DNA of 64,000 nt, from assembly GCA_041550235.1 (NCBI GenBank), contig JBFEPE010000001.1, positions 8,003 to 72,002 on the forward strand. Reading direction: 5' to 3'. The stretch is from Minisyncoccia bacterium (GTDB lineage: Bacteria > Patescibacteriota > Minisyncoccia > UBA6257 > JAAZHW01). Positions within the stretch are counted from its first letter, which is position 1. Every line of letters begins with the position of its first letter. Positions 4,189 to 48,371 of the stretch are shown here, in pieces. The notes under the pieces were generated by a model that saw only the letters and a list, made by a program, of their open reading frames with translations, ran no database searches and was not told the origin of the DNA. The translations under genes were made by a program, and so were the position numbers.

Positions 4189-5598
4189 CTATAATTTCTC
4201 TATATCTTGCCCCTCACTCGTATCCCTCACATCATATCCTAATTTTTTTAACTCATTTCGCAAGTCATCAGAAGTTTTCCAGTCTTGACTATCTCGAGCA
4301 ATCTTTCTTTTTTCTAACAAATCAGAAACCTCATCAGGAATATCAAAATCTTTTCTCGCCTCAGAGTTTCTCAAAATATCCAAACCCAAAATATTATCCC
4401 AATCAGAAATCAATCTTATTTTTTCTGACGAAGAAATATTTTCTGACTTTAACATATTCCAAGCAGTCGCCAATGCTTGAGGAGTATTCAAATCATCTGA
4501 TAAAGCAGAAATAAATTTATCTTGCCATTTTTTAGAATTTTCTAAATTATTATTCTCATCATCATCACTCTTTTCTAAAATCTCACTCACTAAATCATAT
4601 AAATTATTAAGAGAATTATCTGCTCCTCGCATCGTCTCCCAACTAAAATTCAAACCCTTTCTGTAATGAGAATTCATTGTCAAATATCTAAAAGATAGGG
4701 GATGATATCCCTTTTCCTTTATATCATCAATCAAAATCATTGAAGCAGGGTCGCTCTTTGCTATTTTCTTTCCCTCATAACTCACCCATTCATTATGGAG
4801 CCAAAAATTAGATGTCTGCTCTCCAAATGCAGCAGTTGCTTGAGCAACTTCATTTGTATGATGGACTGGAATATGCTCTTTTCCGCCAGTATGAATATCA
4901 AATTTTTTACCCAAATATTTTACTGACATTGCAGTGCATTCAATGTGCCATCCCGGGAAGCCAACACCCCAAGGACTTTCCCATTTCAAAATATGTTGTG
5001 GCTGATTTGTTATCCAAAGAAGGAAGTCCCATGGTTGTTTTTTTTCTTCATCAACATCAACTCTTTTGCCGGCTTCTTGCTCTTTCAAATTTAAATTAGC
5101 AAACTTTTCATATTCTTTAAACTTTGAGGTATCAAAAACTAACCCTGTCTTTGTTTGATAAGTAAATCCTTTTTCTTCTATTTTTTTAATTAAATCTATC
5201 TGCTCTTTAATATGCTCGGTTGCTTTTGATAATATATCTGGCTTTTTAATATTTAATTCGTCCAATGATTTTAAGAATTGCTTTGTATATTTTTCTGCTA
5301 TTTCCATCACTGATAATCCTTCTCTTTTTGCTCCCTTTTCCATTTTGTCTTCACCTGTATCTTCATCAGAGGTGAGATGCCCCACATCTGTGATATTCAT
5401 TACCCACTTCACTTCATAATTTTGGCTCTTTAAGAATCTAACTAATATATCCCAAACGATATAAGCGAACATATGCCCGATATGTTGGTTCCAATATACT
5501 GTTGGGCCACAAGAATATATTCCCACCTTGTTTTTTTCAATGGGTATAAATTCTTGCTTTTTTCTTGTGAGGGTGTTGTATAATTTAATCTCTTTCAT
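4189..5598 (-). CDS. cysS: Cysteinyl-tRNA synthetase
   Basis: CGPTVYWNQHIGHM contains the HIGH motif. Class I fold. 469 aa. C-terminal DALR-like helical domain. Confidence 0.9.
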   Translation of the reverse strand: MKEIKLYNTLTRKKQEFIPIEKNKVGIYSCGPTVYWNQHIGHMFAYIVWDILVRFLKSQNYEVKWVMNITDVGHLTSDEDTGEDKMEKGAKREGLSVMEIAEKYTKQFLKSLDELNIKKPDILSKATEHIKEQIDLIKKIEEKGFTYQTKTGLVFDTSKFKEYEKFANLNLKEQEAGKRVDVDEEKKQPWDFLLWITNQPQHILKWESPWGVGFPGWHIECTAMSVKYLGKKFDIHTGGKEHIPVHHTNEVAQATAAFGEQTSNFWLHNEWVSYEGKKIAKSDPASMILIDDIKEKGYHPLSFRYLTMNSHYRKGLNFSWETMRGADNSLNNLYDLVSEILEKSDDDENNNLENSKKWQDKFISALSDDLNTPQALATAWNMLKSENISSSEKIRLISDWDNILGLDILRNSEARKDFDIPDEVSDLLEKRKIARDSQDWKTSDDLRNELKKLGYDVRDTSEGQDIEKL

Positions 5599-14764: not shown

Positions 14765-15345
14765 GAAGACAAGATGGATATTGGCAGGCGAGCGAGGAGC
14801 TTAAAAATTTGATATAAGGGTATAAAATTGTATTTTTAATTTTCTAAATTGTTATGCGGAATAATTTAGAAAAAAGATGAGATATCGATTCCAAGCATCA
14901 CTTTTGTTATTTTTTAGAGGGGCGATTTATTAATTCCCTCCCCCGCCGTAGGCGGGGGAGGGAATGGAGTTAGAAAATAATAAGAGTGATGTTTGGATAA
15001 TAATATTTCTCATCGGGGCAGATAATTAAGGGTGTGTGGTGGATGCCTTGACTTGTAAAGGCGAAGAAGGACGTGGCGTGGCTGCGATAAGCTTCGGGGA
15101 GTTGCTTAGCAAACTTTGATCCGGAGATTTCCGAATGGGGAAACCCATCTCGAATTTAAACTCGAGATATCCCATCTTATCTTAAAGATGGGGAGCTAAC
15201 CCGCTGAAGTGAAACATCTCAGTAAGCGGAGGAAAAGAAAAAAAGATGAATTATTTGTTCCACTTGTTTTAAATATTAGAACAAGTAGAACATCTAATTC
15301 ATTCATTCCCTAAGTAGCGGCGAGCGAAAGGGGAAGAGCCCAAAC

Positions 15346-15448
15346 CCAGCCCCAGTTTTTATCTAGTGACGAAATTTGTATTTGATTAATTTATTAAGAA
15401 AAAGATTATTTATTCAAATAAAAGTGGCTGGTTAAAAACTGGGGCTGG
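15346..15448 (+). mobile_element. 23S intervening sequence copy a (hairpin element with CCAGCCCCAGTTTT / AAAACTGGGGCTGG termini)
   Basis: About 103-nt AT-rich insert bounded by a perfect 14-nt terminal inverted repeat. About 95% identical to copy e at 17801-17901. Confidence 0.7.
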
Positions 15449-15765
15449 GGGTTGTAAGATTATAAAATCTCGTTTAATCGTGGTAGAGAAAAAATTAAGT
15501 TTATTAATAGAATTTGCTGGGAAGCAAAACCAAAGAAGGTGATAGTCCTGTATATGAAAATTTACTTATCTCTATGTTTATTTTCTTGAGTACTTCGGAA
15601 AAGGAAAAATCCGAAGGAATCTAGCTGAACTATCAGCTAAGGCTAAATACTTTACAAGATCGATAGCGAACCAGTACCGTGAGGGAAAGGTGAAAAGCAG
15701 GCCGGTGAGGCCAGTGAAATAGTACCTGAAACCACACATTTACAAGCAATCAGAGTCTGTCATAT

Positions 15766-15945
15766 CTGTTTGTTCTTTTTAAATTTAAAATCTTTTTGAT
15801 CTACTTGCAGAAGGTCTTGAGATGCATTTTAGTTAGCAGGGGGGAGGCATTTTTTGCCTGGTTAAGACCATATTTTCCCTAGACCCAAACGGGATACCCC
15901 CATTGCTTTATTTAATAGTGTCCTTTTTAAAAAAAGGACAAACAG
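15766..15945 (+). other. 23S expansion segment / IVS bounded by ctgtttgttc...ggacaaacag
   Basis: About 180-nt insert relative to consensus 23S domain I/II. Closed by a 10-bp inverted repeat. Confidence 0.5.
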
Positions 15946-16011
15946 ATGTGGCGGATAATGGTGTGCCTATTGAAGAATGAGCCAACGAGTGTATGGATAT
16001 TGCTGATTAAC

Positions 16012-16119
16012 CCAGCCCCAGTTTTATGATAGTTTTCTAAAGTGAATAAAATTTTGATTCGCTTTGGAACGAGCGACATGTGTGTTGCTGATAAAACTTA
16101 TTGGTAAAACTGGGGCTGG
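16012..16119 (+). mobile_element. 23S intervening sequence copy b (same terminal inverted repeats, different interior)
   Basis: cccagccccagtttt...aaaactggggctgggg. Confidence 0.7.
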
Positions 16120-16660
16120 GGAAGTCAAAGGGAAACCAAGTCTTAACAGGCGACAACAATTTTTTCTTTTGGTCTTATTGGCTAAAGGAAAAATTTGTAA
16201 GTAGTATTCATACGACCCGAAGCCAGAGCGAGCTTGCCATGGCCAGGGTGAACCTCATCGAAAGATGAGGGGAGGCCCGAACCGTTAGGTCGTGCAAATC
16301 CTTCGGATGAGCTGTGGTAAGAAGTGAAAAGCTAATCGAGCCTGGTAATAGCTGGTTCTCCTCGAAATAGTTTTAGGACTAGCGTCTATTTTATCCTATT
16401 GCAGGTAGAGCTACTGGTTGAGAAGAATAGGGGGCAACCTCGGCTTCTTAGTCAAACTCCGAATGGTGATAGGTTATGAATAGGCAGTTAGACTGTGGGG
16501 GCTAAGCTCCATGGTCAAAAGGGCATGAACCCAGATCGCCATCTAAGGTCCCTAAATCTAGACTAAGTGTTGCAAAAGGTAGTGATCGACCGAAGACAGG
16601 TAGGATGTTAGCTTAGAGGTAGCTATCATTTAAAGAGTGTGTAACAACCCACTGCCATAT

Positions 16661-16762
16661 CCAGCCCCACTTTTTAACTTGAAATCTAAATTTTTCATTG
16701 GTTTATAATTGCAAAAAGTTTTAAATCGTGATTTATAGATTCTAGCTAAAAAGTGGGGCTGG
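16661..16762 (+). mobile_element. 23S intervening sequence copy c (variant termini CCAGCCCCACTTTTT / AAAAAGTGGGGCTGG)
   Basis: Inserted between gagtgtgtaacaacccactg and ggtcg of the conserved helix. Confidence 0.65.
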
Positions 16763-17377
16763 ATTGGTCGGTTGCATCGAAAATGTATCGGGGCTAAGTC
16801 TAGTACCGAAGTTGCGAATTTCCTCGCTTTTTAGTGGGGGAGTGGTAGAGGAGCATTCCATATGTGATGAAGCTGGACCCGAGAGGGCTGGTGGAGTATA
16901 TGGAAGAGAGAATGTTGGCATGAGTAACCGCAAGCAAGGTGAGAAACCTTGTCGCCGAAAACCCAAGGTTTCCGTGGCAATGTCAATCAGCCACGGGTTA
17001 GGCGGCCCTAAGGCGATGGCGAAAGCCGTAGTCGATGGACAGCTGGTTAATATTCCAGCTCTTCTAAGTAAATTCGATGGAGTGACGGGGGAAATAAGGT
17101 TGAGTGTCTTATTGGTTTGGCATTACTACCCCTAAGAAATGTTTTTTTGGTAAATCCGGAAAACTGCTTTTAATAGCGAATTTCGGGGGATGCAAAATTC
17201 CGCTTCGGCGGGAAATTTGACTGAATAGCCCTCCAAGAAAAGCTTCTAAGATATATTTATTTAGAATCCGTACTCTAAACCGACACAGGTGGGTAGGTAG
17301 AGAATACCAAGGCGAACGGGTGAGTCTTCCTTAAGGAACTCGGCAAAAAAGCGACCGTAAGTTCGCGATAAGGTCTT

Positions 17378-17683
17378 CCAGCCTCAGTTTTGTGTTATAA
17401 TTTATGATATGTGGGTTGTATATATCATACAAAATGATTTTTCAGAAGAAATCTATATCGGCATAACCAAGGATTTAAAAAGAAGAATCTCAACTCATAA
17501 TTCTAATGGCAAAAAATTTACCACTAGGAAAAATGGTAAATGGATTTTGATTTATGCTGAGGCATACAAGTCAAAAAAAGATGCTATTGTAAGAGAGATG
17601 AAATTGAAAAATCATGGAAGTGCAAAGCATAATTTAATTAAACGAATTAAAAATAGTTTAATTGAACACAAAACTGAGGCTGG
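17378..17683 (+). mobile_element. 23S intervening sequence copy d, carrying a GIY-YIG endonuclease ORF (termini CCAGCCTCAGTTTT / AAAACTGAGGCTGG)
   Basis: Same terminal inverted-repeat architecture as copies a-c and e, but 306 nt long with an internal ORF. Confidence 0.7.
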
Positions 17684-17756
17684 ACGCAGCGAAAGTATCC
17701 CTGGCGACTGTTTATCAAAAACACAGGTCCCTGCTAACTCGCAAGAGGATGTATAG
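17409..17756 (+). CDS. GIY-YIG family homing endonuclease-like ORF inside 23S IVS (C-terminal ~25 aa read through into rRNA exon)
   Basis: VYIIQN...YIGITKDLKRRISTHN matches GIY-(10)-YIG with conserved R and H/N. The ORF starts 18 nt inside the IVS. Confidence 0.6.
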   Translation: MWVVYIIQNDFSEEIYIGITKDLKRRISTHNSNGKKFTTRKNGKWILIYAEAYKSKKDAIVREMKLKNHGSAKHNLIKRIKNSLIEHKTEAGRSESIPGDCLSKTQVPANSQEDV

Positions 17757-17800
17757 GGGCTGATGCCTGACCGATGCGGGAAGGTTAAATCTGGCGGTCC

Positions 17801-17901
17801 CCAGCCCCAGTTTTTATCTAGTGACGAAAATTTGAATTTAATTAATTTATTAAAAAAGATTATTTATTCAAATAAAAGTGGCTGGTTAAAAACTGGGGCT
17901 G
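17801..17901 (+). mobile_element. 23S intervening sequence copy e (near-identical to copy a)
   Basis: ccagccccagtttttatctagtgacgaaaatttgaattta...aaaactggggctgg. Confidence 0.7.
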
Positions 17902-18379
17902 GGGGCTAACTGGATGAAGCCCCCGTCAATGTCGGCCGTAACTATAACGGTCCAAAGGTAGCGAAATTCCTTGTCGGGTAAATTCCGACGTGCATGAACG
18001 GCTTAACGACTGGGGAACTGTCTCAAGGAAGAGCCCGGTGAAAATGCAATTTCAGCGAAGATGCTGAGTACCCGCAGCAAGACGAAAAGACCCCGGGAGC
18101 TTTACTGTAGCTTGGTATTGGGCTTGAGAATGTAATGCGTAGCATAGGTGGGAGACTTTGAAGTTTCAATTTCGGTTGAGATGGAGTCGCCAGTGAAATA
18201 CCACTCTTTATATTTTTAAGTTCTAACCTTGATGGAAAAAACATTAGGGGACAGTGCCTGGTGGGCAGTTTTTCTGGGGCGGAATCCTCCCAAAGAGTAA
18301 CGGAGGAGTTTATTAAGGTCAGCTAGGTGCGGATGGAAATCGCACTGATAGTGTAAAGGCAAAAGCTGGCTTAACTGCG

Positions 18380-18480
18380 AGGCCTACAAGCCGAGCTCTA
18401 TTTCGTGTTTCGCATAAGAACTTTCAAGAAAATAATAATTCTACCCCCGCCCATACGGGCGGGGGTAGAATAGGCAAATT
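18380..18480 (+). repeat. 23S expansion containing a GC-hairpin repeat (ctacccccgcccatacgggcgggggtag)
   Basis: About 100-nt insert relative to consensus. It carries the same hairpin family seen in intergenic regions. Confidence 0.5.
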
Positions 18481-18596
18481 TAACTCTGGAATTTCTTGTG
18501 CGGAGCATGAGATAGACTTTCTAGATAATTATATTTAGATCGAGATACGAAAGTAGAACTTAGTGACCCGATGGTTCTCTGTAGAAAGGCCATCGA

Positions 18597-18628
<32 letters not shown>

Positions 18629-18766
18629 TTAGTTGCGCCCAAGAGTCCATATCGACGGCGCAGTTCGACACCTCGATGTCGGCTCATCTTATCCTGGAGG
18701 CGGAGAAGCTTCCAAGGGTTTGGCTGTTCGCCAATTAAAAAGATACGCGAGCTGGGTTCAGACCGT

Positions 18767-19122
18767 TGAGTAGTCAAGATAATTTTTGGTTTTTAGGGTG
18801 GATAGTGTGTTTCTTTCTCTTAAATTAATTAAAATTATTATTAAATTGACTTTTCAGCAGTCTGAATCCGAGGAATAAGACATCAATTTACGGCGGCATT
18901 TCGTAGTAATACGGAATGAAAAACCGACTCATATCGGTGGAATCCCAATGGGACAATACCGAGGGAAGTTGTGTATGTTAATATCATGGTGGTCATTTCG
19001 TCAAATAAAAGATAATGTTAAATGACATGCATTAACCCCGTAGAGACTATATGTCGGTCTCCTCTTTTGACAAAGAGGACGAAGATATAGTCCAATGCAC
19101 TTAGTAATAAGTGGGAAACATG
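18767..19122 (+). mobile_element. Group I intron in 23S rRNA (ORF-less, ~356 nt)
   Basis: Exon junction gaccgt|cgtaagacaggttgg reconstitutes conserved GAACGUCGUGAGACAGUUCGG. Intron follows a U and ends in G. R-like gtagagacta (19040-19049) and S-like aagatatagtcc (19082-19093). Confidence 0.6.
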
Positions 19123-19263
19123 CGTAAGACAGGTTGGTCTCTATCTGCTGTGGGCGTTGATACTTGAGGGAATTTGACCCTAGTACGAGAGGACCGGGTT
19201 GAACGAACCTCTGGTCTATCAGCTTTCCTACCAGGGGAATTGCTGAGTAGCTAAGTTCGGTTG

Positions 19264-19296
<33 letters not shown>

Positions 19297-19480
19297 CATC
19301 CCAAGATTAGGTATCCATTTCAATTTATTGGAAGTCATCCCCTCAGAGACGATGAGGTTGATAGGCTTTAGGTGTAAGGTCAGTAATGATTTTAGCCAAG
19401 AAGTACTAATCGGATGAGTTCTGCCTCGATGAGAGATATTATTTATTATTAATATCAATTTTTACCCTTATATTTTTAAG

Positions 19481-19753: not shown

Positions 19754-20080
19754 ATGAAAACAATAAAGTTTGAGAAATCTCTTGTTCCTTTGGTATTATC
19801 AGGGGAGAAATATTCTACATGGAGAATGTTTGATGATAAGGATTTATCAGTTGGTGATGAGTTGTCGCTTGTGAATAAAGAAACAGGAGAAGAATTTGGA
19901 AAAGCGAAAATAAAGAATATAATAATAAAGAAATTTAAAGATATAGATGAGAATGATTTTAAGGGACATGAGAAATTTTCAAGTTTAGAAAATATGGAGA
20001 ATAAGTATAGAGAATATTATGGCGATAAGTTTTCTATCAACGAAGATGTAAAGATGATTGAGTTTGATTTATTAAGATGA
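19754..20080 (+). CDS. ASCH-domain protein (108 aa) located between 23S and 5S rRNA
   Basis: MKTIKFEKSLVPLVLSGEKYSTWRMFDD...GDEL matches the ASCH/PUA-like beta-barrel signature. Followed by GC hairpin caccaccgcccattcgggcggtggt. Confidence 0.55.
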   Translation: MKTIKFEKSLVPLVLSGEKYSTWRMFDDKDLSVGDELSLVNKETGEEFGKAKIKNIIIKKFKDIDENDFKGHEKFSSLENMENKYREYYGDKFSINEDVKMIEFDLLR

Positions 20081-27112: not shown

Positions 27113-27425
27113 GCCAATGTAGCTCCCGCCGAAGGCGGGCGAAGCAGTTGGTGGAGGTTGGAACATTACGAAGTTGTGTTTCAACCCGTGGTAAGGAGTA
27201 CATTTATTTATATTTTGCCAATGTAGCTCCCGCCGAAGGTGGGCGAAGCAGTTGGTGGAGGTTGGAACATTACGAAGTTGTGTTTCAGCCCATGGTAAGG
27301 AGTATATTTATTTTTATTTTGCCAATGTAGCTCCCTCCGTCGCCAAGGCTATGGAGGGGCATGCAGTTGGTGGAGGTTGGAACATTACGAAGTTGTGTTT
27401 CAACCCATGGTAAGGATTAGATATA
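27113..27425 (+). repeat. Three tandem ~104-bp repeats, each a scrambled tRNA-Thr-like fragment with an embedded GC hairpin
   Basis: Each unit starts gccaatgtagctc (the tRNA-Thr 5' end), carries cccgccgaaggcgggcga and ends c(c/a)tggtaagga(g/t)ta (anticodon loop + 3' stem). Units start at about 27113, 27217 and 27321. Confidence 0.75.
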
Positions 27426-27456
27426 TCTTCTCAAATATTAAAATCTGAAAAAATAT

Positions 27457-27494
27457 GCCAATGTAGCTCAGCTGGTAGAGCAACTCCATGGTAA
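27457..27494 (+). pseudogene. 5' half of a split tRNA-Thr(GGT) gene (acceptor through anticodon loop)
   Basis: gccaatg-ta-gctcagctggtagagc-a-actcc-atggtaa. The 3' partner lies at 45551-45592. Confidence 0.75.
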
Positions 27495-27650
27495 TTTCTC
27501 TCCCGTGATAAGTAGAGTGAAATTAGTTAGAATACAAGAGAAAGTTAATGGATAAGGGGGTTTTAGCGGGGAGGCATCTGGCAAAAATGGGTCGTGGTCG
27601 GTAGATGTAAAAATTATCATTAAACAGCAAAAGGTTATTATATCTCTTTT

Positions 27651-27723
27651 GCCGTTGTAGCTCAGTTGGTAGAGCAACGCCGTGGTAAGGCGTAGGTCAG
27701 CGGTTCAAGTCCGCTCAACGGCT
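27651..27723 (+). tRNA. tRNA-Thr (anticodon GGT), island-borne copy
   Basis: gccgttg/caacggc acceptor. D-arm gctc-agttggta-gagc. Anticodon arm acgcc-gtGGTaa-ggcgt. T-arm agcgg-ttcaagt-ccgct. Discriminator T. Confidence 0.85.
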
Positions 27724-27748
27724 CCTTAAAAAGCATTACAGATTAGTA

Positions 27749-28660
27749 ATGTTTTTTATTATTATGGATATACAAATTTTAGTTCGTAAGTTTTGTGATT
27801 ATTCAACTTTTATTAAAGGATATACTCCGCAAACAATTAAGAGATATAGGCAGACAATTCGTTCCTATATCAAATTCGCTAATATCACTGAAATAGAGGA
27901 AGTGAATTTAGAGAATGTTCGTAATCTTTTTTATTCTGGCCGAACCCAAAGGAATTGGTCAACCAATACCTATATCTGCTACCATAAATCTTTAATTGTT
28001 TTCTTTCGTTGGTGTGTAAGTGAAGGCCACCTTCAATCCAATCCAGCCGAAGAGATTGAAGTGCCGAAACTGGAAAAGAAAATTCCGCCTAAATTAACCA
28101 AGCAAGAAACGATGAGGATATTGGAAGTAGTAGAAAATTATCCTTATATCAATGATTTTTTAAGGCAAAGAAATTATGCTATCTTTGCCACAATCATAAT
28201 GGCAGGATTGAGAAAAAATGAGATTATCAATTTAAGGTGTGTTGATATAGATATTGAAAATCTCTCTATTTTTATTCGGCAGGGGAAAGGAAGTAAGGAT
28301 CGGATTGTGCCAATCAATTACAAATTAGCTGAAATTTTAAGCAAATACGAAAAAGAAAGAAAAAGATTGAAAAAAACTTGCCCCGAATACTTTGTTTCTC
28401 TCTATAAAAATATGGGGATTAGGCATAATGGCTTAAAGTTATTGGTAGAACAAATATCAAAAGCATCGGCGATTAAATTCACTCTTCACAAATTAAGGCA
28501 TACCTTTGCCACAATGATGTTGGAGGGAGGATGTGATATTTATTCTCTCTCTAAAATGATGGGCCATAATGATATAAAAACAACCACAATTTATTTGGCC
28601 GCCAGCATAGAGCATTTAAGAGAACAGATGATTAAACACCCAATGGGAGATGTTTTGTAG
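27749..28660 (+). CDS. Tyrosine site-specific recombinase/integrase (XerC/D-like)
   Basis: C-terminal catalytic box HKLRHTFATMMLEGGCDIYSLSKMMGHNDIKTTTIYL (R..H-R..Y). 303 aa. Adjacent to the tRNA. Confidence 0.9.
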   Translation: MFFIIMDIQILVRKFCDYSTFIKGYTPQTIKRYRQTIRSYIKFANITEIEEVNLENVRNLFYSGRTQRNWSTNTYICYHKSLIVFFRWCVSEGHLQSNPAEEIEVPKLEKKIPPKLTKQETMRILEVVENYPYINDFLRQRNYAIFATIIMAGLRKNEIINLRCVDIDIENLSIFIRQGKGSKDRIVPINYKLAEILSKYEKERKRLKKTCPEYFVSLYKNMGIRHNGLKLLVEQISKASAIKFTLHKLRHTFATMMLEGGCDIYSLSKMMGHNDIKTTTIYLAASIEHLREQMIKHPMGDVL

Positions 28661-28730
28661 GCACTCTTGGATTTACACTTGACTTTTTGTGTGTTTATGG
28701 TTAATATAGTAAGGGAGGTAAAAATAAAAA

Positions 28731-29326
28731 TGTTTACAGAAAAAATAAAAAAGAAAAAAAGAAACATTTCTCAATGCGAATTAACAAGTAGAAGTTCTGA
28801 GAAGCAAAAATCAGAATTAAAAAAGAAAAGAAAGGGATTGGCCAATAAAGACATAAGAAATCTTTTGAAGTTAAGCTCATTTGTTAAGGAGATAATGGAT
28901 TATAATGGTTATAGGGTATTTTTAACTCCAAATGGAGCTGGTGAGATCAGTGGAAGGTTTAAGCAGGTAAAAAGACATATATTAGAGCATAAAATCAAAG
29001 TGAAAACTTCAATACAAAGGTTATTGGAGTATAAAAAAACACTCATAGAAAATGGATCTGGAATAATAGAAAAAGATATTGCCACTATAAACAGAGAAAT
29101 ATATTTTAACTATCATTTATACAAACAAACGAAAAACAGAGAAAAGAGAATTAGAAAAAAGAACAACCCAATAATTGAAGGAATTTCTGAAAGTGGAAAA
29201 GAAAATAGACGACAAAGAAAATTATCAGGAGATGAAGATCAGCAGGTAAGAATAGCTTGGAAAAAATCCCACGATATTATAACCAAAAGTAAAACAAGGA
29301 ATGCTAATCTCAAAAAAGCTAAATAA
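28731..29326 (+). CDS. Hypothetical basic protein (listed ORF from 28667; ATG at 28731 preferred)
   Basis: SD gggaggt precedes 28731. Lys/Arg-rich. No family recognised. Confidence 0.4.
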
Positions 29327-29334
29327 TTAGCACA

Positions 29335-29365
29335 AATCCGTTCTAACTCAGAGCGGATTTTAATT
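29335..29365 (+). terminator. Hairpin terminator
   Basis: aatccgttctaactcagagcggatttt. Confidence 0.5.
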
Positions 29366-29400
29366 TATCTCTTGCCAATAAGAAATTTCGCCGTATAATA

Positions 29401-29592
29401 AAATCAATAATTTAATATGCCTAACCCCTATGATTATTCATAGGGTATGGCGATAAATCCATCCCTGTATTGAGCTCCTCGTTCAGCTTATCAGGGATGG
29501 TCATATTCGGAAACGGATATGGATGATCGCAAGATCGTCAGGTTGGCGGGGAGCTTTGTGTTCCAAGTCAACCACTAAAACCATCCCTAAAT
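29401..29592 (+). ncRNA. Candidate structured cis-regulatory RNA in the 5' leader of the 29593 membrane-protein gene
   Basis: Locally GC-richer. Hairpins ccctatga-ttat-tcataggg; ccatccctg...cagggatgg; tattcg-GAAA-cggata; gatc-GCAA-gatc; ggttg...caacc. A second ccatccc copy abuts the start codon. Confidence 0.4.
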
Positions 29593-30564
29593 ATGAAAAA
29601 CAAAAGCGAAAAATCAGATATATTTGCTCGCATATTCTATATATTTGGTTTTATCCTCAATAGATTATTTTATGTTTTCATTTCTCTATTGGTTATATAT
29701 CTAATTGAAGAATTTGTTTTCAAATCATTAGATATAGCCATTCCTTTTAATAATTTCTTTTGGTGGCTGATTATTTTAGTTAATTTCACAGGATATTTTC
29801 TAAAAATGTTTGGCTGGAAACAAGAAATTAAAATTACCGGCCAAGCATTCATTATCATCTCTTTTGTTTGGATGTGGCTTCAATTTTCCTTTGGTCAATT
29901 CTTAATCTTATTTCCCATTTATTTCTTAACCAAAACAATTGCCGATGTGATTATGATTTTAATAATAAGTTCAGATAAGTTTAATTCCAGTATTAAAGAA
30001 AAAGCCCAGAGAAGAGAAAAAAGCAGATGGATTATCAAAAAAGCTGAAAAGAGAATTTGGTCTGCGAGAGAAGGAGAATGGATTTTCAAGAGAATAAAAG
30101 AATTAACCCAAGAAGAATACCCTAATTTAGAAAAATGGCTTAAAGACGAACCCGAAGATTTTATAGAAAGTATAAAACAAAATGTTTTTATCAATATAGA
30201 GAAAGATATTAAAACAGAGACCGAAGATTTTTTTGAAGAAATTAAAAATCTTTATCTGACAGAAGAGATGAAAATAGCTCTTGATAGGTTAGAAAACGAC
30301 AAAAAAGAAGGCATAACTCGTTTTGAAGGCCTATCCGAAGAAATATCTTTTGACGGCCAAAATACAATTCTTTTTGGAGTAAAACTGACCAAATATCCAA
30401 TCATTGAAGAAAAACTATTATCCAATCCCGAAGTAGTTTATATGAAAGTCCAAGAAGTATCTGAAAAATATCATAACAACAATTACGAAACAGCCATCTC
30501 AATGATTGAAATGGATTTAACCCCTCTTTCAGAAGAAAAAAGAGAGCAATGGTGGAACAGATAG
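29593..30564 (+). CDS. Hypothetical membrane protein (4-5 N-terminal TM helices, acidic cytoplasmic C-terminal domain)
   Basis: Hydrophobic segments LFYVFISLLVIYLI, FWWLIILVNFTGYF and FIIISFVWMWLQF. No family recognised. Confidence 0.5.
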   Translation: MKNKSEKSDIFARIFYIFGFILNRLFYVFISLLVIYLIEEFVFKSLDIAIPFNNFFWWLIILVNFTGYFLKMFGWKQEIKITGQAFIIISFVWMWLQFSFGQFLILFPIYFLTKTIADVIMILIISSDKFNSSIKEKAQRREKSRWIIKKAEKRIWSAREGEWIFKRIKELTQEEYPNLEKWLKDEPEDFIESIKQNVFINIEKDIKTETEDFFEEIKNLYLTEEMKIALDRLENDKKEGITRFEGLSEEISFDGQNTILFGVKLTKYPIIEEKLLSNPEVVYMKVQEVSEKYHNNNYETAISMIEMDLTPLSEEKREQWWNR

Positions 30565-34681: not shown

Positions 34682-36124
34682 ATGCTAAAAAATTTTACAA
34701 CACAATTTAGAGATTTAGGCAAAGAAACATCAATTAGATTTGATTTCAGTTTTATTGATTTTCAAAATACTTTTTTAGTTAAAGATTATTATTCTTTTAG
34801 TGATTTATTTGAAATTAAGGAGAACAACAGAAAGGATATTTCTGAAATAAAGGATGATTTTTACTATTCAGAAATAGGAAATGTTAATAAATTGGGAGAG
34901 GTTGATCCAGTAAAATTAAATTTTGATGAAAAGTCTGAAGAATATTTAGATTATTTTAAGAAAATAGAGAGGGGAGATATTATTGAGGTCGGGGAAGGGG
35001 AAATTCTAATATCAAAAGTTCGTCCTAATCTAAAGAAATATGTTTTTATTGATGATAAAAATAAAGAATATTTTTATACTTCTGCTTTTATTCACTTAAA
35101 ACCAAAAAAATTAAATAAAGTTTTATATTATTCATTAAGAAGTTTATTTTTTGATAATTTAATAGCTATTTCAAGACAGGGCAAAGGTTATCCTACTTTG
35201 AAAAATGAAGATTTATATTACTTAAAATTCAATAAAGAAATGATTGATAAATTAGAAAGTAAAGAAAAAGATATAAATAGCAAAATAATCCCCAATGAAA
35301 ATAAAATTAAGGAATTGAAAGACAAAATAGAAAAACCGCAGGATATAATCAATGAAGTTTTTGCTAATGAATTTAGTTTTGATTTAAAAAAATTTGAGGA
35401 ATTAAAGAAAGAAAATATTTTTTCTGTTAATTTTAGTGATTTTTCTAATTACCACAGCCTAAGATTTGATTTTAAAAACAAGAAATTTTTTCCAATTTTT
35501 GAAGATATTATTTCAAAACTTGATACAATTAGACTAAAAAATATTGTTTTAGAAGATCCGCTTTATGGAGCAAATGAGCCTGCTATTGATGGTGTTGTTG
35601 GTAATGATATAAGATATGTAAGAATAACTGATATAGATGATTTGGGGGAATTAACAAATAACGAATGGAAAACCGCCGAAAATATAGACGAAGTTTATTT
35701 ATTAAAAGATTTAGATTTTCTTTTTGCGAGAAGTGGTAATACGGTCGGTAAAAGTTTTTTATATAATTCAAATAAACACGAAAAATCTATTTTTGCTGGA
35801 TATTTTATAAAATTTAAAATTGATTTTAAAAATTTAAATCAATTATTTTTCCTTTATTATTCAAAATCTTTTATTTTTGAATTATGGAAAAATGGAATTG
35901 TAAGAGTAAAGGGGCAACCAAATATAAATGCTAACGAATATTTAGAACTTCAAATTCCTAATATCCCATTATCTAAACAAAAAGAAATAGTTAAAAAAAT
36001 AAAATCTCGATTAGATAGACAAGAAGAAATCAAAAAAGAAATAGAAAAAGAGAGGGATAAGATAGATAAAATAATTGAAAATGCTATAATACAAACACTT
36101 GAGGGCTATAAGCCCCTGCTCTAA
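34682..36124 (+). CDS. Type I/IIB restriction-modification specificity (HsdS-like) subunit with two target-recognition domains
   Basis: Two TRD signatures (ISRQGKGYPTLKNEDLYYLKF; ARSGNTVGKSFLYN). C-terminal coiled-coil spacer KQKEIVKKIKSRLDRQEEIKKEIEKERDKIDKII. 480 aa. Confidence 0.7.
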   Translation: MLKNFTTQFRDLGKETSIRFDFSFIDFQNTFLVKDYYSFSDLFEIKENNRKDISEIKDDFYYSEIGNVNKLGEVDPVKLNFDEKSEEYLDYFKKIERGDIIEVGEGEILISKVRPNLKKYVFIDDKNKEYFYTSAFIHLKPKKLNKVLYYSLRSLFFDNLIAISRQGKGYPTLKNEDLYYLKFNKEMIDKLESKEKDINSKIIPNENKIKELKDKIEKPQDIINEVFANEFSFDLKKFEELKKENIFSVNFSDFSNYHSLRFDFKNKKFFPIFEDIISKLDTIRLKNIVLEDPLYGANEPAIDGVVGNDIRYVRITDIDDLGELTNNEWKTAENIDEVYLLKDLDFLFARSGNTVGKSFLYNSNKHEKSIFAGYFIKFKIDFKNLNQLFFLYYSKSFIFELWKNGIVRVKGQPNINANEYLELQIPNIPLSKQKEIVKKIKSRLDRQEEIKKEIEKERDKIDKIIENAIIQTLEGYKPLL

Positions 36125-44417: not shown

Positions 44418-45344
44418 ATGAAAGATCTATTTGAACAATTTATAAAACAGCAAGAATATGTTGAAAGGAAAAGAAAAAAGACGATAGAAAATTATCGGCA
44501 GAATTTTAATTTATTGTTTGGCTTTAAGCCTGATTTGAAATTGGAAGATTTAACCGAAGAAACAATGATTGATTTCTTTGAGTATCTTGATACAAGGGAA
44601 AGAAGGGTCGGAAAGAAAATGATTGTTAGAAAAATTAAAAATTCCAGTATCGCCACAATAAGAGGAAAATTAGAGGTATTTTTTAGGTGGTTAGTTGATA
44701 GGGAGCATATCAAATCTAATCCATTTGAAAAAATACCATACCCGGAAGTTTCCTACACAAGCAAAGAGGCTTTCACGAAAGAGGAATTTGATAAAATTTT
44801 TATAAACATCGTTAGAGATATTAAATGGGTCAATGATTTTTTGCGAAAAAGAAACACAGCAATGATAATGACTTTAGTATTAACTGGGATAAGAAGAGAA
44901 GAGTTATTAGAATTAAAGCTGTCTGATATTGATTGGAAGAATAAAAAAATAACAATTAGAGATGAAACTTCTAAATCTAAAAGAACAAGAACTATTCCTA
45001 TGTCGCCAGATTTGAGGCCATTTTTAGAGGATTATTTAATAACCAGAACTAATAAGAAAAATAGTTTTCTTTGGGTCAATGGCAGAGATGAAAAATTTAC
45101 TGAACACGGCTGGAAGCATCTTGTTAAAAAACTAAAAGAAGAAACAGAAACTAATTTCCGCACCCATAGATTTAGACATACATTTGCTTGTAATTATTAT
45201 CGGCAGAGAAAAGATCCGGTTGGATTACAAAAAATGATGGGACATCAAGATATTAAAACTACTTTTAAGGTATATTTGCGATCCATAGATGATGATGATT
45301 TAACAAAAGAAATGAATAAATTTAAGATTTCTAAGTTTTATTAA
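44418..45344 (+). CDS. Tyrosine site-specific recombinase/integrase (second copy, divergent from 27749)
   Basis: HRFRHTFACNYYRQRKDPVGLQKMMGHQDIKTTFKVYL. N-terminal SAM-like core-binding domain. 308 aa. Confidence 0.9.
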   Translation: MKDLFEQFIKQQEYVERKRKKTIENYRQNFNLLFGFKPDLKLEDLTEETMIDFFEYLDTRERRVGKKMIVRKIKNSSIATIRGKLEVFFRWLVDREHIKSNPFEKIPYPEVSYTSKEAFTKEEFDKIFINIVRDIKWVNDFLRKRNTAMIMTLVLTGIRREELLELKLSDIDWKNKKITIRDETSKSKRTRTIPMSPDLRPFLEDYLITRTNKKNSFLWVNGRDEKFTEHGWKHLVKKLKEETETNFRTHRFRHTFACNYYRQRKDPVGLQKMMGHQDIKTTFKVYLRSIDDDDLTKEMNKFKISKFY

Positions 45345-45550: not shown

Positions 45551-45592
45551 ATGGTAAGGAGTAGGTCAGCGGTTCAAGTCCGCTCATTGGCT
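45551..45592 (+). pseudogene. 3' half of the split tRNA-Thr(GGT) gene
   Basis: atggtaa-ggagt-aggtc-agcgg-ttcaagt-ccgct-cattggc-t. Complements the 5' half at 27457-27494 (gccaatg/cattggc, actcc/ggagt). Confidence 0.75.
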
Positions 45593-45599
45593 CTTTTAG

Positions 45600-45625: not shown

Positions 45626-45636
45626 TTTTTCTTTTA

Positions 45637-45716
45637 AAAATATGTTAAAATATATACATATTTAGAGGGCAAAAGCCCCTGCTCTGAATCTTTGGGGTAG
45701 GGGTTTTAATATAAAT
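45637..45716 (+). repeat. Copy 1 of a ~50-bp direct repeat plus hairpin cassette (second copy at 48282-48371; partial third at 36101-36152)
   Basis: aaaaatatgttaaaatatatacatatttagagggcaaaagcccctgctct...ggggtaggggtttt...atATG. Confidence 0.75.
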
Positions 45717-48022: not shown

Positions 48023-48281
48023 ATTAATATTATACTATAATAATAGATTTAATGACATACTTACTCTTAAATAGTGAAAGACGGCGAGCAATCTTGTCGC
48101 TTTGTTGATTTAATAATACCATAATTAAAGATAATATAAAGTCTAAAATTCCAGAAGTAATTATTTAGAGAATTAAGCATTCAAAAATTTAGTATTTTTA
48201 ATATTATATAGATTGCTTTTTATTGTCAGATTTTTTATTTATCAAATTTGCCATAATAATACAGGCAAATTTATTTTATTT

Positions 48282-48371
48282 AAAAATATGTTAAAATATA
48301 TAAATATTTAGAGGGCAAAAGCCCCTGCTCTATTTGTGTCGAGATGGGGCTTTTATTATTAAATTAAAAAT
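48282..48371 (+). repeat. Copy 2 of the direct repeat plus hairpin cassette
   Basis: aaaaatatgttaaaatatataaatatttagagggcaaaagcccctgctct; perfect stem aaaagcccc/ggggctttt, then attattaaattaaaaatATG. Confidence 0.75.

Follow-up and report, generated by a model that had tools for sequence, protein, structure and literature searches.

The stretch of DNA analysed here, called the window below, comprises 64,000 nucleotides (nt) of a Minisyncoccia bacterium (contig JBFEPE010000001.1, positions 8,003 to 72,002 of the forward strand) and carries at 29418-29539, on the plus strand, an RNA of the LOOT family (RF03000). Upstream of this RNA, a terminator-like hairpin with a T-rich tail (29334-29360, plus strand) closes an open reading frame (ORF) at 28667-29326, so that LOOT opens a new transcription unit. 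The hairpin is followed on the same strand by a promoter-like site at 29372-29399 (TTGCCA, a 16-nt spacer and TATAAT, 11 of 12 matches) with a predicted start near 29406. The gene led by the RNA, also on the plus strand, is an ORF of 323 amino acids (aa) with three predicted membrane-like segments (29593-30564); a Pfam search with its product and with that of the upstream ORF gave no matches. No promoter- or terminator-like site was found by a scan of the interval between LOOT and the ATG at 29593, and the terminator scan made no call at 29401-29700. We infer from this layout that LOOT and the membrane-protein ORF form one transcription unit starting near 29406, and LOOT probably acts as a cis-leader at this locus. 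An earlier interpretation of the same letters, made without database searches and referred to below as the sequence-only reading, had also described the segment as the leader of the membrane-protein gene.

An Rfam scan of the window, which that reading had recommended, aligns 29418-29539 with model positions 1-121, i.e., the entire RF03000 covariance model, at 86.6 bits against a gathering score of 46.4, and the E-value of the match (5e-15) places the pattern far beyond chance. The structured segment is, with near certainty, a member of the LOOT family, which the sequence-only reading did not name. The LOOT core in the window has the P1 hairpin with its CCUAA/YAUGG loop and A-rich linker, the P2 helix, a GAAA-capped P3 and a tetraloop-capped P4; it shows no departures from RF03000, and all additions lie outside the 121-nt model. 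The locus itself is a further LOOT copy and is thus explained by a known family rather than being new. The family goes back to Weinberg et al. 2017 (PMC5737381), where LOOT is one of 224 candidate structured RNAs; the Rfam 14 paper (PMC7779021) shows it as a family based on metagenomes, and a structure-prediction paper (PMC7657543) remarks on its unusual number of cross-covariations. The literature that we searched nowhere gives a function, host or context for LOOT; nor does it contain a host range in mobile elements of Candidate Phyla Radiation (CPR) bacteria, a 3' pseudoknot, a link to membrane proteins, or a mimic of a LOOT strand at the start codon. The 3' pseudoknot, a 5' motif and the start-codon mimic all lie outside the published LOOT model. 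A blastn search of 29404-29600 against GenBank phages returned no matches.

The five hairpins listed in the sequence-only reading are all present where that reading put them, and the minimum-free-energy fold reproduces them. On the plus strand, the P1 hairpin (29418-29452) contains the stem ccctatga/tcataggg (29426-29433 and 29438-29445) and an internal loop made of CCUAAC (29420-29425) and UAUGG (29446-29450). The A-rich J1/2 linker AUAAAU (29453-29458), of which the AAA is invariant family-wide, leads into P2, whose 5' strand CCAUCCCUG (ccatccctg, 29459-29467) is complementary at nine of nine positions to the 3' strand CAGGGAUGG (cagggatgg, 29492-29500). P3 (29502-29521) bears a GAAA tetraloop at 29510-29513, the presumed partner of a receptor in P1, and P4 (29522-29539) bears a GCAA tetraloop at 29529-29532 and forms the 3' limit of the Rfam model. 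Beyond that limit lies the local hairpin P5 (ggttg...caacc, 29541-29573), which takes up the 3' strand of the pseudoknot described below. The complete element spans about 29404 to 29562. The fold of 29418-29539 has a free energy of -56.4 kcal/mol (z = -7.1) and that of 29401-29610 one of -79.4 kcal/mol (z = -8.1), and in neither case was any of 200 dinucleotide shuffles as stable. The segment also stands out in base composition, as had been noted before, with 45% G+C against about 30% in the surroundings.

Relatives of the RNA were found with a degenerate pattern derived from conserved positions, which matched 3 viral contigs, all confirmed as LOOT by Rfam, and at least 120 genome contigs. Among the matches listed, 104 of 120 genome records carry CPR or Patescibacteria names, and the lineages include Saccharibacteria, Paceibacteria/Parcubacteria, Microgenomates lineages, Gracilibacteria, Peregrinibacteria, Berkelbacteria, Dojkabacteria and others. 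Two matches from Bacteroidales (Proteiniphilum; L030 and L088), whose flanks show neither P4 nor the 3' extension, were dropped as false positives, which leaves 118 genuine LOOT copies among the genome matches listed. The covariation alignment holds 118 sequences. Over the core helices, 88.3% of the alignment cells are paired and 38 of the 45 pairs vary on both sides; the covariation score is 0.59, compared with 0.22 in shuffles and about 0.1 with partners slid, and none of 500 shuffles reaches the observed value. All LOOT helices therefore covary across homologous loci, which is the check that the sequence-only reading had named for its proposed structure.

The CCUAA and AUGG segments of P1 are invariant in the 118 sequences, and the GAAA loop of P3 is nearly so. 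We take the CCUAA...YAUGG internal loop of P1 to be the sequence signature of the 11-nt GAAA-tetraloop receptor, and the P3 GAAA loop probably docks into this receptor-like loop. LOOT would thereby unite the same two parts as the GAAA tetraloop/11-nt receptor module of group I and II introns, RNase P and tectoRNAs; whereas in known systems the module belongs to a large ribozyme, here it would lock a small regulatory RNA. The binding specificity of the 11-nt GAAA receptor is treated in PMC10243134.

Upstream of P1, and outside the Rfam model, the family carries the motif ACAAYUnAAUA at a distance of 8-20 nt; its form in the window is UCAAUAAUUUAAUA (29404-29417, plus strand). A -10-like hexamer starts 12-14 nt ahead of this motif in 36 of 85 related loci. 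Mutual information computed on the family revealed no pairing partner for the motif. A closing helix between its ACAA and the UUGU of the U-rich tract at the other end of the element was considered and rejected: both segments are conserved, but the exceptions occur without compensation. In some LOOT copies (L003, L028, L071 and L095), the stretch from the 5' motif to P1 holds an additional hairpin with a GNRA or UUCG cap.

Downstream of P4, every locus has a conserved extension with the consensus yCUGGCGGCGrGC-UUUKUGU, which pairs with the 5' side of the P2 apical loop in a pseudoknot of roughly 17 base pairs (bp). In the window, its 5' strand occupies 29468-29483 of the P2 apical loop (an A-rich part at 29468-29473 and the core GCUCCUCGUU at 29474-29483) and its 3' strand occupies 29545-29562 (GGCGGGGAGC at 29545-29554 and the U-rich tract UUUGUGUU at 29555-29562), both on the plus strand, the latter outside the Rfam model; the duplex has a predicted energy of -20.1 kcal/mol. 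This pairing of the P2 loop with the 5' half of the ggttg...caacc hairpin is the chief long-range interaction of the RNA, and it was missed in the sequence-only reading. The two partners co-vary between subfamilies, as in GCUCGUCGUCAG/CUGGCGGCGAGC, ACCCGUCAUCAGGG/UCCUGGUGGCGGGU, CCCAUCAUAUGGG/CCCAUGUGGUGGG and UCUGCUAGUCAG/CUGGCUAGCAGA. Cognate strands score 25.0 (median 11 bp) as against 15.4 for non-cognate strands and 13.4 for shuffled tails (p = 6e-52). Over the 118 sequences, the ten core pairs are 87% paired, compared with 42-56% when the partners are slid; nine of the ten vary on both sides, and no shuffle attains the observed covariation. The helix extends beyond this core into the U-rich tract, whose partner is the A-rich part of the loop; in this extension 83% of cells are paired (39-63% when slid) with a covariation of 0.43 versus 0.28. 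Two conserved U-G wobbles in the pseudoknot indicate that the constraint acts on this RNA strand.

Several other uses of these segments were examined and discarded. The U-rich tract as a free terminator tail is rejected on account of its covarying pairing with the A-rich side of the P2 loop. The local P2-loop hairpin, which is the inner helix of the Rfam model, does not qualify as a strong competitor of the pseudoknot (9.9 versus 9.1, median 4 bp). A DNA-level element such as an att or other recombination site is contradicted by the two U-G wobbles, which would be mismatches on the opposite strand, by the nature of the invariant modules, which are RNA tertiary motifs, and by the strict co-orientation with the next gene.

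The P5 hairpin excludes the pseudoknot, because both use the pseudoknot 3' strand. The energy of P5 in the window, -19.9 kcal/mol, nearly matches that of the pseudoknot duplex. Family-wide, P5 scores 16.1 with cognate and 13.2 with non-cognate strands (p = 6e-10) and reaches at least 7 bp in 51% of loci.

A second alternative involves the start of the membrane-protein gene. The sequence TAAATCCATCCCT at 29454-29466 recurs as TAAAACCATCCCT at 29576-29588, a 13-nt direct repeat with 12 of 13 identical positions, so that the start region contains, on the plus strand, a mimic UAAAACCAUCCCU of the J1/2 linker and the P2 5' strand that ends 4 nt upstream of the ATG. The sequence-only reading had placed a second ccatccc directly against the ATG; the copy exists (29581-29587), but it ends 5 nt short of the ATG at 29593. 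That reading was right that cagggatgg can pair with either copy. The P2 3' strand, whose own partner is 29459-29467, is in the register AGGGATGGT (29493-29501) complementary at nine of nine positions to ACCATCCCT (29580-29588), and the 15 nt upstream of the ATG hold no Shine-Dalgarno (SD)-like motif, also as reported there. Forcing the swap costs 1.8 kcal/mol in the window (-77.0 kcal/mol versus -78.8 for the minimum-free-energy fold). A further match, between P3 (29501-29507) and AAUAUGA (29590-29596), was set aside as chance, being a 7-nt A+U-rich pairing that cannot stack on the 9-bp swap helix.

The same arrangement recurs in the family. The P2 3' strand scores 13.0 against the start region of its own locus and 9.9 against those of other loci (p = 2e-5), and in 17 of 105 loci, the window included, the P2 5' strand of the locus itself is repeated, with 0-6 nt between the end of the copy and the ATG. 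The copies cover from 7 nt to the whole of the 10-nt probe and usually include the A-rich linker. The P2 sequences of these 17 loci differ widely and each copy follows its own P2, while an SD-like motif is found in none of them. All eight internal differences between copy and original retain the pairing with the P2 3' strand: six turn a wobble into a Watson-Crick pair (in L004, L047, L114 and L083, and twice in L079), and the changes in L015 and L025 turn a Watson-Crick pair into a wobble. At some loci, P2 is the weaker of the two helices. An origin of the copies as simple duplication relics is contradicted by their fixed position and by the pairing-preserving substitutions. The window shows two conserved sets of mutually exclusive helices. 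The earlier suggestion of a riboswitch- or attenuator-type architecture is supported as far as exclusive pairing recurs in 17 of 105 loci, the signal being marginal in the other 88; a riboswitch proper is not established, no ligand being indicated by the functionally heterogeneous downstream genes.

Two further copies of LOOT segments were observed next to start codons. In L112, an orphan LOOT 5' domain (P1 with the receptor loop, linker and P2 5' strand; 4301-4349, minus strand, 26.8 bits, E = 0.003) lies about 85 nt past a complete LOOT (4435-4555, 89 bits) and runs right up to the ATG of the following ORF; the start-codon mimic is here enlarged to a whole domain. In L008, a 12-nt exact copy AACCAAGAGATA of the linker and P2 5' strand occurs 1.26 kb downstream of LOOT, 7 nt ahead of the ATG of the third downstream gene (about 504 aa); it may offer the P2 3' strand a second target or be due to chance.

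The position of LOOT relative to its neighbours is conserved as well. LOOT and the gene that follows share a strand in 98 loci and lie on opposite strands in 15, whereas for the preceding gene the counts are 49 and 60, which indicates that LOOT usually heads a transcription unit. At a median of 43 nt (interquartile range 35-51) past the pseudoknot, 105 of 119 loci have the start of an ORF that begins with ATG and encodes at least 40 aa, start codons having been assigned naively as the first ATG that opens such an ORF; this distance is too short for the following gene to have a separate promoter. The downstream products are unrelated to one another. The 893 flanking proteins fall into 704 clusters, and 100 complete downstream proteins match 32 Pfam families with at most five members each, for example, DUF2726, DUF4352, DNA methylases, DUF5067 and superinfection immunity proteins, with no transport or metabolic theme. 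What they share is a membrane-like segment, which 73% of the downstream products have (71% in the first 60 residues); among the remaining flanking proteins the figure is 29% (odds ratio 6.7, p = 5e-17). Their median length is 160 aa, against 323 aa in the window.

The sequence-only reading had further proposed to check homologues of the membrane protein for the same leader. The sole detectable homologue (52% identity), in locus L124, does have a LOOT-like leader, a divergent one of 35.1 bits, below the threshold, and the locus continues with a type I restriction system. A comparison of L124 (2240-2470) with the window (29370-29600) shows that the promoter region (cttgctaataagaaatttcgccgtataata) is almost the same in both and that the coding starts are similar. 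The LOOT core of L124, in contrast, belongs to another subfamily, with GGUCUUCUGAC/GUCGGGAGACC as its pseudoknot. Since the two loci share the promoter region and homologous genes and not the LOOT core, the comparison suggests a modular exchange of LOOT cores between elements.

In the window, LOOT resides in a mobile element. The 3' half of tRNA-Thr (27651-27725) at 27683-27727 (plus strand) is repeated at 45552-45596 (45 nt, 91%), and these repeats bound an island of about 17.9 kb with integrases, LOOT and defence genes. A tyrosine integrase (27749-28660) follows the tRNA, before the ORF at 28667-29326, and a second one (44418-45344) lies at the right end; the two integrases may represent two elements in tandem. 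The 323-aa ORF is followed by defence-type genes, namely, an Eco57I-type N6 DNA methylase, a KAP NTPase, a UvrD-like helicase and a GmrSD/Schlafen protein. Among 124 loci (123 pattern loci and the window), large serine recombinases flank LOOT in 40, and the other recurrent flanking proteins are N6/N4 DNA methylases, terminase-like proteins (a weak match), pSAM2-type rolling-circle initiators, Prim-Pol/AAA_25 proteins and tyrosine integrases that resemble those of the window. On account of these recurrent neighbours, LOOT is a feature of integrative elements and prophages of CPR bacteria. The window agrees with this host range in its low G+C content and in a 23S rRNA match that extends over 4.4 kb for a model of 2.9 kb.

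Based on these sequence comparisons, the locus may be read as a LOOT leader that, under its own promoter, heads a membrane-protein mRNA in a tRNA-Thr island of a CPR-type bacterium and gates its translation by a strand swap; we regard the correctness of this combined picture as an even call, and translational control by strand swap at this locus, taken by itself, as a serious prospect that falls slightly short of even. The native fold would consist of P2 and the pseudoknot, locked by the tetraloop-receptor contact, and would leave the A-rich, SD-less region before the ATG single-stranded and open to translation. Where the lock is not formed, the 3' tail would fold into P5, the P2 3' strand would move to the copy of the P2 5' strand at 29580-29588, and the resulting swap helix would occlude the ribosome landing site and turn translation off. 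Inputs that come into question are an effect of Mg2+ or temperature on the tertiary lock, a factor of the element or of the host, and a slow refolding after transcription; the last would cap the translation per transcript and would suit membrane proteins that are harmful in excess. Extended to the family, a proposal that we put forward tentatively, LOOT would be an unrecognised class of cis-acting translational switch or self-timer of CPR mobile elements. The locked, pseudoknotted core would choose between its own 5' domain and a mimic of it at the start codon of an accessory gene, the accessory genes being mostly those of membrane or secreted proteins and free of SD motifs.

Several points weigh against this proposal. 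The start-codon copy is absent from 84% of LOOT loci, so the swap cannot be the general mechanism of the family unless it is replaced otherwise there, and in the remaining 88 loci the start region shows no more than marginal complementarity to the P2 3' strand (10.7 versus 9.8, p = 0.04). In the window, the pseudoknot state lies about 7 kcal/mol above the minimum-free-energy fold by nearest-neighbour energies, which are unable to rank a pseudoknotted, tertiary-locked state. Which of the two states is 'on' is an assumption of ours, the start codons rest on the naive assignment described above, and the helix with its U-rich tract could alternatively serve transcription termination. Finally, Rfam assigns LOOT the type 'Gene; sRNA'.

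This assignment corresponds to an alternative already mentioned in the sequence-only reading, in which LOOT is an independent, trans-acting small RNA (sRNA) that ends at the pseudoknot helix and U-rich tract, with the next gene a bystander or reached by read-through. Its promoter-like site in the window, its closed and compact architecture and the strong helix followed immediately by UUUKUGU in 87% of loci would all fit such an RNA, and the 12-nt copy found 1.26 kb away in L008 would fit targeting through the P2 3' strand. An RNA of this kind would have its own promoter and terminator and a placement independent of its neighbours, whereas LOOT has no canonical terminator (none is called at 29401-29700), its U-rich tract is engaged in pairing with the A-rich side of the P2 loop, and the following gene is strongly constrained in both orientation and distance (98 co-oriented versus 15, at a median of 43 nt, with no room for a promoter of its own). 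As a copy of the P2 strand moreover stands at the ATG of the gene in cis in 17 loci, we consider the sRNA explanation unlikely. A similar terminator-like feature underlies the idea of a conditional transcription attenuator, in which the helix of the P2 loop and 3' tail with its U-rich tract halts the polymerase before the gene, to be released if the P2 loop is held in a small local hairpin or if a factor of the mobile element intervenes. A G+C-rich helix of 10-14 bp with a U-rich tract directly after it and an A-rich tract opposite resembles many intrinsic terminators, and LOOT comes right after the promoter and heads operons in phage-like elements. The presumed hairpin, however, would be non-canonical in enclosing about 60 nt with two stable hairpins, and the scan calls none; the conserved G of UUUKUGU, covarying with the loop, points to a structural helix, the antiterminating P2-loop hairpin is barely supported (9.9 versus 9.1, median 4 bp), and P5 forms too late to avert termination. 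Attenuation is accordingly given little weight here, less than a ligand-sensing riboswitch.

For a riboswitch that senses a metabolite or ion, the locked fold would be the aptamer, and P5 with the start-codon copy would be the expression platform. LOOT does lie in the 5' untranslated region of a co-oriented gene (promoter-like site at 29372-29399, ATG at 29593), and its complex tertiary architecture, the invariant unpaired AAA of J1/2 and the mutually exclusive helices of nearly equal energy are what such a regulator might offer. No shared gene function points to a ligand, however: the 100 downstream proteins spread over 32 Pfam families, none with more than five members, and lack a transport or metabolic theme, most invariant nucleotides belong to the receptor and GAAA modules and not to a junction pocket, and the host elements are mobile. 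We find ligand sensing quite improbable, although ahead of attenuation. The lowest credence goes to LOOT as a passive, non-switching 5' module that protects against 5' decay or insulates the start region, with the strand copies as leftovers of recombination. Such a module would explain why LOOT heads unrelated cargo genes in mobile elements and why the window and L124 share the promoter and homologous genes and not the LOOT cores, and the orphan 5' domain of L112 shows that partial copies occur. Decaying leftovers would not be expected, however, to lie always 0-6 nt from the ATG and to retain pairing through their substitutions, six of which turn wobbles into Watson-Crick pairs, and the 5' motif before P1 is predicted to be single-stranded, so that the fold leaves the 5' end uncapped.

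Among known systems, the translational switch proposed here has its closest counterparts in strand-swap expression platforms, which are found in translational riboswitches and RNA thermometers, for example, in the add adenine riboswitch and in the SAM-II and preQ1-II pseudoknots. As in these, a LOOT strand would select either an internal partner or the ribosome landing site, and the 3' tail takes part in a pseudoknot; in contrast to translational riboswitches, LOOT has no indicated ligand or coherent regulon, and the swap is documented in 16% of its members. The mRNAs of hok/sok-type type I toxins are another case of long-range alternative pairings with fold-back control. In both, genes for membrane proteins lie on mobile elements, and a long-range alternative helix of similar energy can cover the start region of the gene; a hok-like fold-back in LOOT would permit a time-dependent inactivation of the mRNA. 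The LOOT products are, however, larger (323 aa in the window, median 160 aa) than a toxin of under about 60 aa, the RNA folds are unrelated, and the antisense RNA in cis that would complete a hok-like system was not seen, nor was it sought. Finally, HK022 put and lambda nut/6S are phage leader RNAs that act on RNA polymerase after the promoter. LOOT resembles them in its place, directly behind a promoter where an operon of an integrative or phage-like element begins, and in the terminator-like feature that comes next; there is no likeness in sequence or structure and no evidence of antitermination for LOOT.

CPR bacteria are uncultured, have tiny genomes, and their gene regulation is little understood. 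LOOT has been an orphan since 2017, known from metagenomes, and the window and its relatives supply it with a CPR host range and a mobile setting, as well as with a larger structure that includes a covarying pseudoknot and with a testable mechanism for at least part of the family. These family-level results make an orphan motif a testable regulator. If the proposal is true, LOOT would be among the few regulatory devices described for CPR bacteria, and it would head mobile membrane-protein and defence-related genes.

Other features were noted in the window outside the LOOT locus. Just ahead of the tRNA-Thr gene, at 27113-27494, a unit of about 104 nt occurs three times in tandem (95% and 70% identical), each copy starting with GCCAATGTAGCTC, which is the 5' acceptor/D-arm sequence of the adjacent tRNA-Thr, and a fourth copy resembling the tRNA 5' half lies at 27456-27494 (87% to 27650-27688). 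Integration normally duplicates the 3' end of a tRNA, in contrast to these 5'-half repeats. The ORFs of 53-60 aa within this region look spurious. The bacterial 23S rRNA model (2925 positions) spans 4413 nt (15016-19428), with insertions of about 1.5 kb in all that are possibly introns, and the rRNA gene is followed by an ORF at 19754-20080. An 83-nt repeat (83% identical) occurs just past the right island end (45628-45710) and again 2.6 kb further on (48274-48356), and a related 35-nt copy is located inside the island (36089-36123); all three copies contain the hairpin GAGGGC-AAAA-GCCCCT.

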